Positions 7,821 through 62,240 of a stretch of DNA of 64,000 nucleotides are shown here, in pieces. Source of the DNA: a phage. The notes under the pieces are model-generated. The model was not told the origin of the DNA. It saw nothing but the letters and a program-made list of their open reading frames with translations, and made no database searches. Within the stretch, counting starts at the first letter, position 1. Each line of letters opens with the position of its first letter. The stretch is from sequence record PZ445451.1; one strand, 5' to 3'. Position numbers and translations under genes: made by a program.

Positions 7821-8414
7821 TTAAATCTTAAATTCTTCGTTGTTAAGTGAATCCAGTGTACGTACTTCTGGTTCTTTGGGGATGAAAACGTCTTTTACAA
7901 AGCGGAACATAGGGAAACGTTCTGCCATTTTACGGACGTGTGCTTCTTTACCTGTGTAGCGGTGATTAATAGTACAAATATTAGTTTTCAGCGCAAATTC
8001 AAAATCTGGATGATATACATAATTTTGACCATCCCAGTAACACAGGCAAATAGCTACGTCAAAGTTCCATACGATTTCACTGCGTACACCTTCTTCCATG
8101 ATCATAAAGTTAAACTTAAGATCTTTATAGTATGCTTCAAATACCCATTTCAAATGTGGTAGTTCGGCATAAGTGTGTTCTGTTTGCTTAGTAAGTTGTT
8201 TAACATTACGTGCACCAACACCCAACATCAAAAATTTCTCTACTAGTACGAGTGTATTGTGGTTAGGCATACGCAAGTAAATATCAATATCTTGCGCAGG
8301 TTTCTCTAATCGCCAATCACGTACAGCGCCGCCAGCTACAATTGCAAACGGATCTACCAGTTGGCACATACGTAATACTTCTAAAGCTCGTACTTTTTGA
8401 TCTTCAATATTCAT
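7821..8414 (-). CDS. Pol-beta-type nucleotidyltransferase, CCA-adding/poly(A)-polymerase head-like
   Basis: AIVAGGAVRDW...DIDIY matches the GGxVRD...DxD head-domain signature; start moved to internal ATG 7 nt after AGGAG. Confidence 0.55.
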   Translation of the reverse strand: MNIEDQKVRALEVLRMCQLVDPFAIVAGGAVRDWRLEKPAQDIDIYLRMPNHNTLVLVEKFLMLGVGARNVKQLTKQTEHTYAELPHLKWVFEAYYKDLKFNFMIMEEGVRSEIVWNFDVAICLCYWDGQNYVYHPDFEFALKTNICTINHRYTGKEAHVRKMAERFPMFRFVKDVFIPKEPEVRTLDSLNNEEFKI

Positions 8415-8422
8415 ATTTTCTC

Positions 8423-9010
8423 CTATCGTTTCCACTCTTTGTGTTGTTCTACATGCTCAAGCATTTCATTATATAGTGCTTTAAGATGTGGAACAACTCT
8501 TTCATCTTCAGTTTCAAAGAATTTTGTAAGCTGCTCTGCTTTAGCTTTCAACCAGCAAAGATGCGCTTCAATTTCAGTATTAAAACGTCCCAGCGTTTTT
8601 ATGCGACTGTCTACTTTTATATTGGCTTTGTATTTATTACGATCTTTTTCGTAACTACATCCCACCATAGTCCCATGAGATCTTTTACTTACTCTATAAG
8701 CTAAGAACTTATTAAGATCTCCTGTTACTAAAAGACAGGTATTGGGAGAGTAAACTCTCCCTCCTATAATATCTTTATCAAGTTCTAAGTTTTCCCAGTC
8801 ATCCCAAGTTTGCAACCAGGAATAGAAATTGGAGAACAACTTCCATTCTTCACAAACTGTCACCCCATTATAACAAGGATCACGTTCTTGTTGACAAGGG
8901 GAGTAACACCTCCCCAACATAGACATCCATTTCATATAAGCAGGGTGCATAGTTCCTCTAGGAGATCTTACAGTAAAATCTCCATCAAAAATACCATGAC
9001 CATATACCAT
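8423..9010 (-). CDS. Putative freestanding homing-endonuclease-like / AP2-type DNA-binding protein
   Basis: YMKWMSMLGRCY...YNGVTVCEEWKLFSNFYSW resembles the N-terminal DNA-binding module of phage HNH/AP2 homing endonucleases; AAGGAG RBS. Confidence 0.4.
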   Translation of the reverse strand: MVYGHGIFDGDFTVRSPRGTMHPAYMKWMSMLGRCYSPCQQERDPCYNGVTVCEEWKLFSNFYSWLQTWDDWENLELDKDIIGGRVYSPNTCLLVTGDLNKFLAYRVSKRSHGTMVGCSYEKDRNKYKANIKVDSRIKTLGRFNTEIEAHLCWLKAKAEQLTKFFETEDERVVPHLKALYNEMLEHVEQHKEWKR

Positions 9011-9039
9011 AAAAACTCCTTATAAAACAATATGTTAGA

Positions 9040-12000
9040 CTAATGACAACTGGCCCATGAGTTACCAACATCGTACCCAGCAGTGAGAGGTACATTAAGA
9101 TTGTAATACTCACCAGCTTTATTAACAGCGATAGATGCTAATTCTCCAGCACGACTGTAGGCTGTAAACCAACCACCTTTCGGAGATTCATGTACGTTCG
9201 CCCAAATCTTGCCAGTACGTTTCTCTTCCTCTTCTTTCCAGGCATTAACTTTATCCAAACATTCTTTATCAATTTTCTTTTGTTCTTCTGGATCATCAAC
9301 TTGAGTCCAACCTAAAGATTCTTTAGAGAACCATTTAAAATGCACCAGATCACGAGTTACTTCAAGTTGTGCTTCATCGTGATATGCAATCATTTGTTGA
9401 ACGAATGACTTATTTTTCCAGTCATCAACAAAAAAGTCAACAGCTAATCCTTCTTCTTCGATAAGATCGTCGTAGATAACCATTGCTCTTTTTGCACAAA
9501 TAACACCACCACTCTGGAACAGAGAGTTAAGTATTGCGTGTGCAGATCGTGTAGGTACTTTTCTACCATCAATACCGAGAATGTATTTCTTACCTGTTTT
9601 AACCCAAAAGTCATGCAGACGTTCTTTAAGAAGCGCAAGAGGTTTTGCAGCTTCCCAGAAAGCATCGTATACAAGCTGTCCTGTATACATATCACTACCT
9701 ATAGTTTTTGCTACTTTTGCAGCTTGAGCACCATAAGTAATACCATACTTAACAGATTTAGCAGGGCTTCGTTCAAACTTACGACCAATAGTGTCAGAAA
9801 TACGTCGAGCCATCATTGTATGAACATCATTAGGTTTTTCCAATAATAGAGCATTACAATATTCGTGTGGTTCCTGCTCGTACCGCCAACAATTCCCTGT
9901 AATCGTGATGCAGTCTTTCTGACGCATAACCCATGTACCGAGTTCTGTTTGTGGACACCAAACATCTTCTACACCCCATTCTTCAATAGTCAGACTTTGA
10001 ACAGGGATGTGAGAGCGGTTAGCCAACGTTGCCACTTTTACTTTCTGGTCTTTCGTATTGAAGGCTACAGAAATATTACCCCCATGAACCAGGTATGAGG
10101 CAGTTAAGGCTGCTTCAAAAAGTTCTCCTGGGTTCTGCGCCCAGCGCCAAACAGGTTTTTGTTTATGTTTGTGCCAGTAACCATCCGCAATCAAAAAACC
10201 TTCCAAGAAAGCCACACGCTCGGCATGAGACATATTAACTACACGTTCTACCCACGGAACATCCCATTTACCTTGTTGAACAGAAGTTAAACTATTTACT
10301 TGATCTTGTTCCATGTTAAATGGAGCATTACAAATAATGTTATCTCCTGTGCAAAGCTCGGCAGTTGTTCTGACTTTAGGCACATAAGTATTCCCTGTAC
10401 TACGAGTATTAACATACCAACGGTGATCTGCTGTTGCACGATAAGTATGGGATTTTCCTTTAATCTCAAACGTCTTACTATTTTTATAGAAGACCTTACC
10501 TTTTACTTTAGTCCATTCTTTAAGTCCTGTTTCTGGGTTATATCCTAAGATTTCATCCCCTTCTTGTAGATCGTGATAACCAACCCAACCTTTACGGGTT
10601 AGTGCTTGTGCATCCATAGGTACACAGTAGTGTGATTCTATTTTTGCCTCAAGAGAATCAAAGTCATAACCAATTTGGAAGTATTTTGGAACTTCTACAC
10701 CAAATAAGTTACGCATTTCATATCCGTACAGAGATGTTACACGTGGGATATTTGCTACTAACCTATGTTTCATACGAGATGTAGCTGCATCACACGTTGC
10801 AGCAGGAGTTGGTATACGACCATCAGCCCTTACTGCTGCCAGATAACCTTTATCGTAATCCTCTTCATCTTCTTCCCAATCAGCACCACCACCTAGAATA
10901 GAGTTCCTACGGTGTTTATACGTAAGATACTGCACAATCTGCGTAGCATAAGGAAACTTTTCACCCAGTGCTTCCAAGTTAGGACAAATATCTTTCTCTT
11001 GCCCTTTTGTAAAGGAAGGGTTCGTAAGCACTTTAACACCACGACCTTTAGCTTTAGCAATACGATCTCTTAGTTTCCATTCCAAAGTTTCTGGTGTGCA
11101 CTCCAGATGATCACATCTGTCCTGGCAGAAGTTAGATGCTAACGTTTGATCAACATAGTCACGAATAGCTTTCTCCATTTGTGCTTCATCTTTCTTAATC
11201 TTAGTGCCAGATTTAAGAGTGATATCTTTATCTTTGTATTCAGATGGACTCCAACCTAAACCAACTAACCAGTTTTTAATATGTGTAGTGTCGTCTAAAG
11301 TAGCAGGTACTGTAGGATCACAAATAGGTTCTTCTGCTGGAATAGGGAGTTTAAACTCTTTACCTAAAGCAAATAACCACCAACCATCTTCTTTTTGTAC
11401 AAGTTCACCAGAATGTTTCTCTGCAAACTTTATCATGTTACTTGAAGGTTCACCATTCTTTTTAAACTGTAGTTTAGGTGGAATGAATGATTTCAAATAA
11501 CCTTTGGTAGCAGGTTTAGGAGGTAGCACAGGTTCTGCCTCTAAACGACATGCTTCCATTCGAGCATCCAGATCACGAATATTATCTTCTGCTTGTTTCA
11601 TATTGAAAGCAAAGCCACGGTGCTCTTGACGTGTAATAATATCAGCTACACGTTGTTCTAAGTTAAATGGTTCAGACCACTTATTATAATCACCCCACTC
11701 TTCCATCAAATAACGGAACACTGCGGTGTTAGCTTTGTTATCGTAAATACAGTAATACAGCATATCTGCTGCAAATGTTTTAAATCTTTCAGTTTCAGGG
11801 ATGTTTTTTCTAAAATCAATTTTAACATCCCCTCCAGCTTTCTTAGATAACTCTGCCAGACTATGACCACCGAAGCGATCAGGGTTTAGTGTCTTACTTA
11901 AGATCATAGTATCACAAATTTCAATGTTACTATTACCCCAAGTATTGTACTTAATACTGTAGTTGAGTTTAAAAAATAATTTAATTGCCAGTAAGTCGAA

Positions 12001-12354
12001 GTTAATGATGTTGTGTCCAACTACTTTGGTAATTTTATAGTTTGAATTACCTTTAAATTTACCTGTTCCATTTACAAAATCAGGAAAATCTTTAAGAGGG
12101 AAATGGGTATATTCTAAATGCTCATATTCCTCCAATCGGTATTCATACTTTCCGTCAGTCTCAATATACGGACGACCATCGAAAAGATATTTATCACCAT
12201 CATGGAAAGCAATAATCTCTCCAGTATCATGACTTTCGCACACAATACAGTGCATTGCAAAACTATCTTTTAAACGATATGGACTTGCCAAGTAATCTAC
12301 ACTTTCGTCATTAAGCAAGTTGTTACTTTCAATGTCGAAAGTAAAAGCTCCCAT
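9040..12354 (-). CDS. DNA polymerase family A with 3'-5' exonuclease domain, interrupted by an intein
   Basis: Motif A GYDFDSLEAKIESHY, motif B RSPAKSVKYGITYG, motif C AYHDE; AAGGAGG RBS; 245-residue insert between motifs A and B. Confidence 0.9.
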   Translation of the reverse strand: MGAFTFDIESNNLLNDESVDYLASPYRLKDSFAMHCIVCESHDTGEIIAFHDGDKYLFDGRPYIETDGKYEYRLEEYEHLEYTHFPLKDFPDFVNGTGKFKGNSNYKITKVVGHNIINFDLLAIKLFFKLNYSIKYNTWGNSNIEICDTMILSKTLNPDRFGGHSLAELSKKAGGDVKIDFRKNIPETERFKTFAADMLYYCIYDNKANTAVFRYLMEEWGDYNKWSEPFNLEQRVADIITRQEHRGFAFNMKQAEDNIRDLDARMEACRLEAEPVLPPKPATKGYLKSFIPPKLQFKKNGEPSSNMIKFAEKHSGELVQKEDGWWLFALGKEFKLPIPAEEPICDPTVPATLDDTTHIKNWLVGLGWSPSEYKDKDITLKSGTKIKKDEAQMEKAIRDYVDQTLASNFCQDRCDHLECTPETLEWKLRDRIAKAKGRGVKVLTNPSFTKGQEKDICPNLEALGEKFPYATQIVQYLTYKHRRNSILGGGADWEEDEEDYDKGYLAAVRADGRIPTPAATCDAATSRMKHRLVANIPRVTSLYGYEMRNLFGVEVPKYFQIGYDFDSLEAKIESHYCVPMDAQALTRKGWVGYHDLQEGDEILGYNPETGLKEWTKVKGKVFYKNSKTFEIKGKSHTYRATADHRWYVNTRSTGNTYVPKVRTTAELCTGDNIICNAPFNMEQDQVNSLTSVQQGKWDVPWVERVVNMSHAERVAFLEGFLIADGYWHKHKQKPVWRWAQNPGELFEAALTASYLVHGGNISVAFNTKDQKVKVATLANRSHIPVQSLTIEEWGVEDVWCPQTELGTWVMRQKDCITITGNCWRYEQEPHEYCNALLLEKPNDVHTMMARRISDTIGRKFERSPAKSVKYGITYGAQAAKVAKTIGSDMYTGQLVYDAFWEAAKPLALLKERLHDFWVKTGKKYILGIDGRKVPTRSAHAILNSLFQSGGVICAKRAMVIYDDLIEEEGLAVDFFVDDWKNKSFVQQMIAYHDEAQLEVTRDLVHFKWFSKESLGWTQVDDPEEQKKIDKECLDKVNAWKEEEEKRTGKIWANVHESPKGGWFTAYSRAGELASIAVNKAGEYYNLNVPLTAGYDVGNSWASCH
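9892..10626 (-). mobile_element. Intein in DNA polymerase with LAGLIDADG-like homing-endonuclease motif
   Basis: Starts with Cys right after motif A, TADH block B, LEGFLIADGY motif, ends ...ITITGN followed by Cys; removal restores normal A-to-B spacing. Confidence 0.65.
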
Positions 12355-35617: not shown

Positions 35618-38392
35618 TTAGTTTATCAGTTTATTTATGTCTGGTAAAAGATTTATTTCACCTAAGAAATCACCTTCACCTTCCTCTAGCCAACTCTCAT
35701 ATGCTTGTGCATGATTATAGTTACCATCAAAAGAATCTGCAACAAATTTTTCTACAGTTTTTCGAGATGTGCCAGCGCCAAATACACCAAGTTTAATACT
35801 ATTGATCGGTAAAGTGGTGCTTGTTGGTACTTTCTCTGTTGCAACACGGTTGATATCTATAATCTCCTGTACGGTTGTGTTCCATTGTAAGCATTTAACA
35901 CAACGGGTATGCGCTACATACAGTAGGTTTCGCTCTGCCTCTTCCAGTCCTACCCATTCACCAGTTTTTTTATCATAATTGGAAGGAAAATCATTAGCAA
36001 CAATAACCTGATCCCACTCCAAACCTTTAGACTTGTGTGCTGTAGTCAATGTGACTTTTGCTGTAGGAGAATTTCTATGCGTTCTAAGTGTATGTGCTAT
36101 AGTGTTTGCCTTGCCAGAAACTACGATGTTTAACAAGCGTTTAGCATCTGGATCAGCCTCTGCACACTCAACAAATTCATTCCAGTCTGCGTAAGGTAAT
36201 ACAGTTTCATGTTTTACTTTCTCAATATCTCCTCTCCGAAGAGCATTAACACTATCTACCATAGAGATAAAATCCCTGGTATCTACGTTAATAATAATTT
36301 CTTCCCCATCTGCAATACGATCCATTGCCTCCATAAGCAAGGTTAAATTCTTGCGAAAGATGATAGTGTAAGGTTTTGTATAGTCTACAACATCTGATTT
36401 GTAGCTACCTACTACAGTATCAAAGCCTTTACCAACCAAAGGATGACGCAAAGGTTCTTTATCGCTTAAAATCATATTGGCAATGTTTGCCACTTTGGGG
36501 CCAAAACGGAAGCAAGCAGTTAATGGAAGCTCTGCCCCATACTTAGCTGTTTCAATCATCATATTAGAGCTACCTCTAAATTGATAAATGCAGTTGTGGC
36601 TAAGAATTTCATTGCCAAAGAAGTTAGCAGTATCCTCTACTTCAATATCATAATAGATACCCTCACTATCTACAATGTCCACAATCTCTTCTGCCGTTAC
36701 AGTATCACCATCTTTTACCAACACAGACATGCCTTTAAACAAACCCGCTGCCGGAATTAAGTTATATTTGGCACTGTTCACAGAGGACATGCATTCTTTT
36801 AAAGATGCAAACGGAACTATTTCAAGGATCTTTTGTGCAAAACTCAATGCTTCACGATAAGAATTGAAATATTTACGTACACGGTAACGACCTTCCAATT
36901 TAGCAGCACTTACGCTTACACCTGCTTTAATCAGTGAAGAATAGATCGGCATTTCACTTTCTGTCCACTCAAAACTAACTTGTGTTCCTTTACAACCTTG
37001 TGCTCGCAAAGTCACTGTTAGCATTTTTCTTTCATCTACTGCACAATTGATGCTGTGCCAGTGTGGATAAGCAAAATGATAATCTTTATCCTCTAAAAGT
37101 TTAAAACCATTTTGTCCGAATTGTTCAAAGATGTTATTGATCCTTTCTTGATTAATGCCGCGTGAACTTGCTTCAAATACACAAGTAGGAATGCCATATT
37201 GTAAACTGTATGCCATTTCTTTTTCCATAGCAGCTTCACGGTTTTCAACAATATCCAACACCCATAATTTCTGTGCTTTTTCAGAACGTGTACGTTGCCC
37301 CAGTTTAGAAAAACCTTCTTTATCATCGAATTTGTTAGTGATCCCTACTCGGAAACCTAAATCTTTCCTCCACATTAGGTATACCACCATCTGATCATCT
37401 TTCAGAACATAGGATGAAGCCCAAATACGATGGTTATGTGTCATATCTAAAGTTTTACCTGTGGCAGTAATAATATTCCTACCTTTTGTACGTGTAGATA
37501 AAGTCTTATTTGTTACTTTTCTAAATGTAATTTTACCATTAGAATAAGACTCTACCTTATCACCGATTTGTAGGTCTTTCATTGTAACCTGACCATTCTC
37601 GGTATTAAGTACCGTGTTTTCCGACACACATTGGAATTCATCGCCCACTACCACAATTTGTTTTGCAGATTTAGCATTTCGCAGAATAGACAAGAATGCA
37701 GGGTTAACATCCTGGAATTCATCACCAAAAATAATGTCATAACCAAGATCAGCACCTGATAACTCAAACAATTTTACATAGGTGTCATGCGTCATCAAAG
37801 TATCTGTGTTAGGATCAATGCGCTCTCGCCACAATTGTTTTGCATACTTAACTACTTCTGTAATTAGTTTGTGTTCGTTAATACCTTTTCTTTTAATATC
37901 TGCAAGATGTACACCAGGGAAATGTTTACGGCTGATAAAAGGATCATCCGAAAATTCAAACTTACCTACGGTTTGCTTGATCATTAAACCAATCATAGCA
38001 CGAGTTAAAAGTGTTTTCCCTCGTTTATCAATAAGATTATTAATCTTAAATTTCTTTGCTATCTCACTACCTGTACCTGCAACGTTAACATACTGTCCTT
38101 CTGGTCGTGACAGTTTTGCACGTAAACGATGATCCAGGAATTGATAGCAAATGGAATGCAATGTACGGCATTCTACATTTGGTGGCATCTTACGCCGTGC
38201 TTCTTCTGCCATGCTTTTATTGAAAGCTAAGTAAAGAATGCGATCTTCTGTACTGTTAGCCAGCAAATAAAGTGTTGACGTTTTGCCTGATCCAGATTTA
38301 GCTTGGATAGTTAAAAAACGATGGTCTGGAAAAGCCTCCTTAATAGCTGTTTGCTCTTCTGTTGGAGTAAAACTCAACTCTTTCTTAGCCAT
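35618..38392 (-). CDS. UvrD/Rep-family (SF1) DNA helicase interrupted by an intein
   Basis: Walker A AKSGSGKT, motif II IIFGDEFQD, motif III split as VVVGDEFQ / CIYQFRGSS by a 346-residue insert; start set at ATG after AGAGAGG. Confidence 0.85.
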   Translation of the reverse strand: MAKKELSFTPTEEQTAIKEAFPDHRFLTIQAKSGSGKTSTLYLLANSTEDRILYLAFNKSMAEEARRKMPPNVECRTLHSICYQFLDHRLRAKLSRPEGQYVNVAGTGSEIAKKFKINNLIDKRGKTLLTRAMIGLMIKQTVGKFEFSDDPFISRKHFPGVHLADIKRKGINEHKLITEVVKYAKQLWRERIDPNTDTLMTHDTYVKLFELSGADLGYDIIFGDEFQDVNPAFLSILRNAKSAKQIVVVGDEFQCVSENTVLNTENGQVTMKDLQIGDKVESYSNGKITFRKVTNKTLSTRTKGRNIITATGKTLDMTHNHRIWASSYVLKDDQMVVYLMWRKDLGFRVGITNKFDDKEGFSKLGQRTRSEKAQKLWVLDIVENREAAMEKEMAYSLQYGIPTCVFEASSRGINQERINNIFEQFGQNGFKLLEDKDYHFAYPHWHSINCAVDERKMLTVTLRAQGCKGTQVSFEWTESEMPIYSSLIKAGVSVSAAKLEGRYRVRKYFNSYREALSFAQKILEIVPFASLKECMSSVNSAKYNLIPAAGLFKGMSVLVKDGDTVTAEEIVDIVDSEGIYYDIEVEDTANFFGNEILSHNCIYQFRGSSNMMIETAKYGAELPLTACFRFGPKVANIANMILSDKEPLRHPLVGKGFDTVVGSYKSDVVDYTKPYTIIFRKNLTLLMEAMDRIADGEEIIINVDTRDFISMVDSVNALRRGDIEKVKHETVLPYADWNEFVECAEADPDAKRLLNIVVSGKANTIAHTLRTHRNSPTAKVTLTTAHKSKGLEWDQVIVANDFPSNYDKKTGEWVGLEEAERNLLYVAHTRCVKCLQWNTTVQEIIDINRVATEKVPTSTTLPINSIKLGVFGAGTSRKTVEKFVADSFDGNYNHAQAYESWLEEGEGDFLGEINLLPDINKLIN
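36593..37630 (-). mobile_element. Intein in helicase motif III
   Basis: Begins CVSENTVLN, block B THNH, ends YYDIEVEDTANFFGNEILSHN followed by Cys; excision rebuilds canonical GDxxQ-IYxFRG. Confidence 0.65.
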
Positions 38393-62045: not shown

Positions 62046-62064
62046 CAAATGATAATCATTATCA
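62046..62064. promoter_or_regulatory. Fur-box-like site
   Basis: GCAAATGATAATCATTATC matches GATAATGATAATCATTATC at 17 of 19 positions. Confidence 0.5.
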
Positions 62065-62240
62065 GCTATCTTCCACAGGTGGCACTATTTCACGCCAGAT
62101 CATTTCATTTGGCAAGGTGTATATAGATGTTTAGAAATGCCAAGCCATTGATTTACTTAGAATTTATCTGTTTTGTTGTGAGTAGTGCCTTTCTTGCTCA
62201 GAAAATAATCAAAAGTCTTATAAGTCATTGAATGATAATG

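Follow-up and report, generated by a model that had tools for sequence, protein, structure and literature searches.

The freestanding homing endonuclease genes of T4-like phages (Seg, Mob) spread by intronless homing. They sit between conserved genes of an essential module and occur sporadically among relatives. In a competitor that lacks them they should cut the adjacent gene, and so be co-converted together with short flanks. Their products belong to the GIY-YIG family or are canonical HNH enzymes with a zinc finger. In the HNH-AP2 homing endonucleases and I-HmuI (HNH_3; PDB 1U3E), a nuclease motif is followed by a modular DNA-binding domain. The recently named IPA-HNH family includes gp59, gp115/116 and gp209 of vibriophage ICP1, with gp59 as its founding member (Barth, Dunham & Seed 2023, PMC10448857). 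That study counted 431 such genes across 240 phage genomes and placed 29% of family members near DNA polymerase genes; the HNH-related N-terminal domain of the proteins diverges too far to be caught by Pfam HNH_3 and emerged from HMM-HMM comparison (PMC10448857). Our literature search found no other paper using the IPA-HNH name and no biochemical work on a family member. Experiments have demonstrated cleavage and homing for several T4 genes, which is not known for any IPA-HNH gene.

The window analysed here, a stretch of 64,000 nucleotides, is 100% identical to Escherichia phage PaulScherrer (Bas60, MZ501100.1), a lytic Justusliebigvirus of the Stephanstirmvirinae. A window coordinate equals the MZ501100.1 coordinate minus 32675. 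A preliminary description had proposed a freestanding HNH/AP2 homing-endonuclease-like gene at 8423-9010, in a replication module with a high load of mobile elements. We find that this gene, called HEG below, is a new member of the known IPA-HNH family and ordinary for such phages. It shares with the T4-like genes a place between conserved genes of an essential module, a sporadic occurrence among relatives and the expected attack on the adjacent gene of a competitor, but the nuclease families differ.

An IPA-HNH gene follows the DNA polymerase gene

The locus and the two inteins of the window are made up of these features:
7821..8414, minus strand: nucleotidyltransferase gene, the downstream neighbour of HEG, with 197-aa orthologs in HEG-minus phages
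8423..9010, minus strand: HEG-like gene of the IPA-HNH family, freestanding, 195 aa, identical to CDS bas60_0043, deposited as "hypothetical protein"
9016..9021, minus strand: Shine-Dalgarno AAGGAG of HEG, read from the sequence, with a 5-nt spacer to the ATG
9040..12354, minus strand: family-A DNA polymerase (pol) gene, from GenBank features and Pfam DNA_pol_A
9889..10623: pol intein, 245 aa, from the GenBank annotation
36590..37630: second intein, 347 aa, in a UvrD/Rep-family helicase gene (35618..38392), from the GenBank annotation

HEG is an exact open reading frame of 195 codons on the minus strand, with its ATG at 9010-9008, a strong ribosome-binding site and close orthologs. The frame is confirmed as real and not a chance one, because it has a PHROG 953 match, homologs, clusters in protein libraries and a dN/dS ratio below one (values given below). 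It adjoins the intein-containing polymerase gene, as had been described, but lies 29 nt downstream (3') of the pol stop codon on the same strand and not upstream of it. The two inteins that had been counted are those of the polymerase and the helicase, and the label of a replication module rich in mobile elements holds.

On its other side, the nucleotidyltransferase ATG (8414) lies 8 nt past the HEG stop codon. GenBank starts this CDS at a GTG (8435), which gives a 13-nt overlap with HEG. The true start is probably the ATG at 8414, since orthologs in phages lacking HEG begin at that ATG and have an AGGAG ribosome-binding site, which is annotated in phi92. A scan for promoters and terminators around HEG gave nothing above shuffled sequences and no terminator. 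As HEG has neither a promoter nor a terminator to itself, it is probably translated off the pol operon mRNA from the ribosome-binding site that it carries. Its composition is not anomalous (GC 0.34-0.39, like its neighbours), and the window holds no paralog of it. A weak tblastn match at 62052-62198 to HEG residues 16-63 (E=0.06) was judged to be chance, because no open reading frame covers it.

The HEG protein is matched end to end by PHROG 953 ("HNH endonuclease"; E=7e-75) and also by several related PHROGs. Sixty homologs were found in a set of 5.8 billion proteins (best E=3e-113). A profile built from 36 homologs recovered 7,039 clusters at E<=1e-30 from a library clustered at 50% identity (1.84 billion representatives), so the family is very large. 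With tblastn, 1,449 phage records showed relatives. Most of these phages infect Vibrio, Rheinheimera, Bacillus, Escherichia or Pseudomonas, and ICP1 isolates and Barbaviruses were recovered as well. Family copies are scattered within genomes, with three places per Barbavirus genome and five in Raoultella phage Ro1. Close orthologs of HEG are already named "HNH endonuclease" in RefSeq.

The link to the named family is through ICP1 gp59 (HQ641349 26526..27344), which shares 34% identity with the HEG protein over 156 aa (BLASTP, E=2e-21). Like the ICP1 genes, HEG is freestanding and its product has no Pfam HNH_3 match; the domain order is also alike, with a putative, divergent HNH-like N-terminal part ahead of an AP2 domain. 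Like HEG, gp59 lies immediately after a DNA polymerase gene. HEG (195 aa) is shorter than gp59 (272 aa) because it is without the N-terminal extension of about 85 residues found in gp59. The hosts also differ, HEG being carried by an E. coli phage of the Stephanstirmvirinae and gp59 by a vibriophage. Searched by itself, the HEG protein gave no domain in Pfam or NCBIfam and nothing relevant in the PDB with phmmer.

Two further observations concern annotation. In Rheinheimera phage barba_10-9B, the IPA-HNH homolog after the DNA polymerase gene (locus L020, 3965..4618) is annotated "tRNA nucleotidyltransferase", which looks like an annotation error for an AP2/HNH-like homing endonuclease gene. 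A link of HEG to defence systems was considered and dropped; PADLOC gave only marginal matches (E~0.006), on a 40-residue helix.

A helical domain, a putative nuclease motif and an AP2 module

The AlphaFold (AF2) model of the HEG protein has a pLDDT of 94 overall and 93 for residues 1-112. Its layout is as follows:
8813..8944, minus strand: family-specific helical N-domain, residues ~23-66, from conserved columns and AF2
8702..8788, minus strand: putative beta-beta-alpha-metal (His-Me finger-like) motif, residues 75-103, from invariant residues and AF2
8528..8674, minus strand: AP2-type DNA-binding domain built of three strands and one helix, residues ~113-161
8426..8527, minus strand: C-terminal helical tail, residues 162-195, from AF2 helices

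Short strands are predicted for residues 1-22, and helices for residues 23-36, 38-43, 54-57 and 59-66 of the N-domain (pLDDT >90). The hallmark of this domain is W28-x2-M31-x2-R34-C35...Y47...V52-C-E-E-W56...F62...W65, and Foldseek found no match to its fold among the solved structures of the PDB. I-HmuI and the HNH-AP2 enzymes differ here, having NUMOD4-like N-terminal strands where HEG has the helical domain. The preliminary description had taken an N-terminal motif for the DNA-binding module. That motif (W28..M31..R34C35..W56..F62) belongs to the helical domain, and the AP2 module lies at residues ~113-161.

The AP2 assignment draws on profiles and on the predicted structure. The model places strands at 117-120, 125-132 and 135-142 and a helix at 145-160. 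The Pfam AP2 model (PF00847) was found in 13 of 36 aligned homologs (best E=6.8e-8), and the score of the HEG protein itself falls below the Pfam filters. Against the AP2 domain of WRINKLED1 (WRI1), the family profile gave E=3.7e-4, with other ERF/AP2 structures weaker. With the full model, the Foldseek list of PDB matches was headed by the AP2 structures 7et4, 7wq5 and 3igm, all weak matches. On this profile and model evidence the three-strand-plus-helix unit is an AP2 domain, and the Pfam, WRI1 and Foldseek matches together place the DNA-binding module in the central to C-terminal part of the protein.

Between the helical domain and the AP2 module lies the putative nuclease motif, which reads L-E-L-D78-K79-D80...Y87-S-P...V95-T96-x3-N100. 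D78, K79, D80, Y87 and N100 are invariant across homologs, and E76, L77, S88, P89 and C92 are nearly so. A pattern scan matched 203 of 209 family representatives. Among the 203 motif-bearing representatives, the position of the catalytic histidine is a lysine in 197 and a leucine, glutamate or isoleucine in the other six; it is a histidine in none. The predicted topology is two strands (76-78 and 93-95) and a helix from 97, with a pLDDT of 93-94.

The sequence of I-HmuI (PDB 1U3E) aligns with this motif in an ungapped register. Its L-V-V-D74-H75...V91-T92-Q-K-I-N96 corresponds to L-E-L-D78-K79...V95-T96-G-D-L-N100 of HEG, with 22 residues from the aspartate to the asparagine in both. D74, H75 and N96 of I-HmuI are metal ligands and general base. 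HEG thus shares the register L-x-x-D-[H/K]...V-T-x3-N and the beta-beta-alpha topology, the latter as predicted, but the general base H75 is replaced by lysine and the middle asparagine of H-N-H is not conserved.

Profile and structure searches for this resemblance gave no significant match. The Pfam HNH model matched none of the 36 family members, in keeping with how the IPA-HNH family is defined. With hhalign (probability <1%), the family gave no HNH alignment to I-HmuI alone and nothing in the N-domain against a 120-sequence alignment of the I-HmuI/HNH_3 family, and the excised motif regions of I-HmuI and HEG were left unaligned. A profile search of the PDB with the family gave no match to a His-Me finger (HNH) nuclease. 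Foldseek with the N-domain model listed Gme HNH (4h9d) first (E=2.1) and PacI (3ldy) third (E=4), neither of them significant; the PacI match spans 29 columns at an rmsd of 2.3 A and 31% identity.

R.PacI (PDB 3LDY/3M7K) is a His-Me nuclease without the catalytic histidine, in which a tyrosine in the loop between the strands substitutes for it (Jablonska et al. 2017, PMC5714182). The same authors consider His-Me groups inactive when both the histidine and the substitute tyrosine are missing (PMC5714182). The invariant Tyr87 of the HEG family sits in the equivalent loop. In other respects the proteins differ, R.PacI being a zinc-stabilised homodimeric restriction enzyme without an AP2 domain, whereas no Cys4 zinc sites are conserved in HEG.

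Because of the PacI precedent and the invariant loop Tyr87, we consider it most likely that the motif is that of a beta-beta-alpha metal nuclease in which K79 and/or Y87 acts as a non-canonical base. Membership of HEG in the HNH superfamily is putative. A broader proposal, in which the IPA-HNH domain as such is an unrecognised catalytic variant of the His-Me nucleases whose chemistry is carried out by K79 and/or a PacI-like loop Y87, is tentative and somewhat doubtful. We also considered a PD-(D/E)xK reading of "ELDK" and rejected it, the predicted domain being mainly helical with a single hairpin and without a four-stranded core.

HEG is present, deleted or absent among close relatives

A 1.6-kb query spanning the pol/HEG junction matched 136 Stephanstirmvirinae-type records, of which 38-40 carry HEG. 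The polymorphism in presence and absence that had been suggested as a check is therefore real. Within Justusliebigvirus, 57 records match at >=90% identity, and 29 of these have the full junction. In the remaining ones, among them phi92, muut, inny, Paula and KKE7M, no more than ~140 nt separate pol from the nucleotidyltransferase gene. Most phages of the genus Phapecoctavirus are without HEG. Among them, phAPEC8 has a clean empty site, with a 49-nt spacer after pol (locus L006, 2474..2522). In the Phapecoctavirus nieznany, HEG lies directly after pol, where phAPEC8 has a hairpin, and the downstream gene is a different one. The position after pol is thus used in two genera with different downstream genes, and the ICP1 and Rheinheimera Barbavirus homologs also lie directly after a DNA polymerase gene. 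A universal target in the polymerase C-terminus, common to ICP1 and Barbavirus, was rejected because the C-termini of these polymerases differ.

The phAPEC8 spacer hairpin, AAGGGGC-UUCU-GCCCCUU, is GC-rich and stable (-19 kcal/mol, z=-3.1) and has a U-rich stretch behind it; the hairpin is absent from HEG-carrying phages. Some host labels among the matching records are odd. Five "Campylobacter phage" records (A150, A145, C3 and others; ~146 kb; host C. jejuni; accessions among the matches MG065639, MG065645 and MG065656) are ~95% identical to the PaulScherrer region, and Serratia phage KKP_3264 is 97% identical to it. These host labels may be wrong, or the phages may be unusually broadly distributed.

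Seven HEG-minus phages (muut, phi92, inny, Paula, KKE7M, phiWec187 and outra) retain remnants of the gene. In the six of muut type there is one common remnant, in which the ribosome-binding site, the ATG and four codons are joined to the last ~25 codons, and the tail (VVPHF...) now has internal stops. The seventh, outra, has an independent deletion of an alia-type allele, with MLTVYGEGINDLEGESTLPGSKKLTPHYMK joined out of frame to the tail. By the nucleotidyltransferase gene, the nearest neighbours of HEG-carrying phages are HEG-minus: PaulScherrer pairs with muut, JohannJBalmer with KKE7M and VEcB with Paula (99.3% identity in each pair), and ESCO32 with outra (99.5%). Because the nearest neighbour of each HEG-carrying phage lacks the gene, its presence is scattered over the local phylogeny. 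Every HEG-minus allele sampled in Justusliebigvirus derives from a deletion and is no naive target. The alleles therefore document losses but no gains, and invasion itself was not observed.

We considered a linkage between HEG and the pol intein, but all four combinations of presence and absence occur among close relatives. PaulScherrer, ESCO32 and SD2 have both elements; ECGD1, alia, VEcB and JohannJBalmer have HEG without the pol intein; phi92 has the pol intein only; and muut and outra have neither. The pol intein and HEG are independent mobile elements.

Recombination centres on the pol/HEG junction

Two features mark the junction:
9040..9063, minus strand: hypervariable last 8 pol codons including the stop, abutting HEG, with 9 of 24 sites variable
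8929..9045, minus strand: ~120-bp mosaic patch covering the pol stop codon, the intergenic spacer and HEG codons 1-27, from a four-way alignment with sliding identity

These 9 variable sites among the last 24 nt of pol compare with 4-7% over the adjoining 825 nt (hypergeometric P=3e-6), and the 13 phages show 7 haplotypes. The changes are mostly synonymous recodings (AGT/TCT serine, TAG/TGA stop), and the haplotypes do not sort by HEG presence. This stretch is a candidate recognition site, or a candidate site of cleavage and co-conversion. Across the mosaic patch, PaulScherrer matches nieznany, a phage of the other genus, at 86-88% identity, but its identity to alia, of its own genus, is only 50-60%. 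On both flanks the relation is reversed, and PaulScherrer is 98-100% identical to alia. With BLASTN, alia-type alleles align over nt 1-517 of HEG only. The hypervariable pol end and the mosaic patch together indicate a focus of recombination at the pol/HEG junction, the place at which cleavage and short tracts of co-conversion should fall.

Within the genus there are two classes of HEG allele, ~12% apart, and the flanks differ by ~2%. Between the genera, HEG (81% nt identity) is about as divergent as pol (78-80%). The dN/dS ratio between alleles is 0.13-0.31. Four phages have identical HEG proteins; in the one pair tested, alia and JohannJBalmer, the genes differ at 12.6% of synonymous sites. 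Intact HEG alleles are under purifying selection.

The polymerase gene of phiWec187 (L015, LC739536.1 98220..101768) stands apart. Its 3' 849 bp are ~88% identical to those of the other 13 Justusliebigviruses, which are 97-99% identical among themselves, and its CDS is 3549 nt long against 3315 nt for the intein-containing pol. phiWec187 may therefore have a divergent pol allele, a different insertion, or both.

Discussion

We think it probable that HEG is an active or recently active homing endonuclease gene in the spacer between pol and the next gene. This analysis shows its family membership, its domain layout, its sporadic distribution, the remnants, the empty site, junction-centred recombination and purifying selection. 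The preliminary description had called it HNH/AP2 homing-endonuclease-like and freestanding, which the homology to gp59 and the RefSeq names of its orthologs bear out. The term endonuclease stays provisional, because a lysine replaces the HNH histidine and no HNH match in Pfam, NCBIfam, hhalign or Foldseek was significant. No domain search assigned the protein to a non-nuclease family, and the gene is not universally conserved at this locus; the preliminary description had named both outcomes as ones that would count against it.

In the mechanism that follows, we infer that DNA is cleaved, what each residue does and where the target lies. The protein would be translated from the pol operon transcript by means of its own ribosome-binding site. 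Its AP2 domain, possibly aided by the variable N-terminal 27 residues, would recognise a specific sequence located at the 3' end of pol, or close to it, in a co-infecting phage without HEG. The beta-beta-alpha motif would then cut or nick the DNA, with D78 and N100 holding a metal ion and K79, or the loop Y87 as in PacI, standing in for the usual histidine base. Recombinational repair from the HEG-carrying genome would copy HEG and a short flank into the recipient.

There are two rival accounts. HEG could be a domesticated, non-catalytic site-specific binder of AP2 type, descended from a homing endonuclease and now regulating or protecting something in the replication module. The catalytic histidine is absent in every member seen, and His-Me groups without it or its tyrosine substitute are regarded as inactive (PMC5714182). 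A nuclease-domain match was never significant, and the position after the polymerase is fixed in three phage lineages. Purifying selection is strong, since four phages keep one and the same protein although synonymous sites have diverged. Yet about half of the phages of the same genus do without HEG and keep only pseudogene remnants, and other phages hold several family copies at scattered places. Recombination is focused at the junction of HEG, and the two acidic residues, the lysine, the tyrosine and the asparagine are invariant across clusters less than 50% identical, a pattern typical of an active site and not of a binding surface. We regard this account as improbable.

We give the same low weight to the idea that HEG was once mobile and is now immobile. 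It would then be ancestral to Justusliebigvirus and Phapecoctavirus, inherited vertically, reshuffled by ordinary homologous recombination and lost by deletion, and no homing today would be needed to account for the pattern. The near-equal divergence of HEG and pol between the genera fits such a history, as do the single deletion common to six HEG-minus Justusliebigviruses and the second one in outra, which document losses and not gains. It accounts less well for allele classes ~12% apart between flanks that differ by ~2%, for a ~120-bp patch of other-genus type exactly at the junction, or for hypervariability confined to the 24 nt of pol beside HEG. Purifying selection with all motif residues kept also stands against it, since under the classical homing cycle a selfish gene that has become immobile should not show it. 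Since the HEG-minus alleles derive from deletions, the pol-end haplotypes are unsorted and HEG diverges much as pol does, an ancient presence with vertical descent and repeated loss is a less probable alternative to the active or recently active homing endonuclease gene that we prefer.

For the PaulScherrer genome the consequences are small. One "hypothetical protein" is relabelled as a selfish element, which helps to explain mosaicism near pol. For the abundant family to which it belongs, the locus is a handy test bed, with E. coli K-12 as host and a candidate target of only 24 nt. Natural phages of three kinds are at hand, with HEG, with a remnant of it or with a clean empty site, and the question to put to them is whether a His-less "HNH" domain cuts DNA. 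If the IPA-HNH domain is a His-less catalytic variant, a family of more than 7,000 clusters (50% identity) would consist of working nucleases or nickases whose active site is non-canonical, and the clade of the PaulScherrer HEG would have specialised on the region around the stop codon in genes for family-A DNA polymerases.
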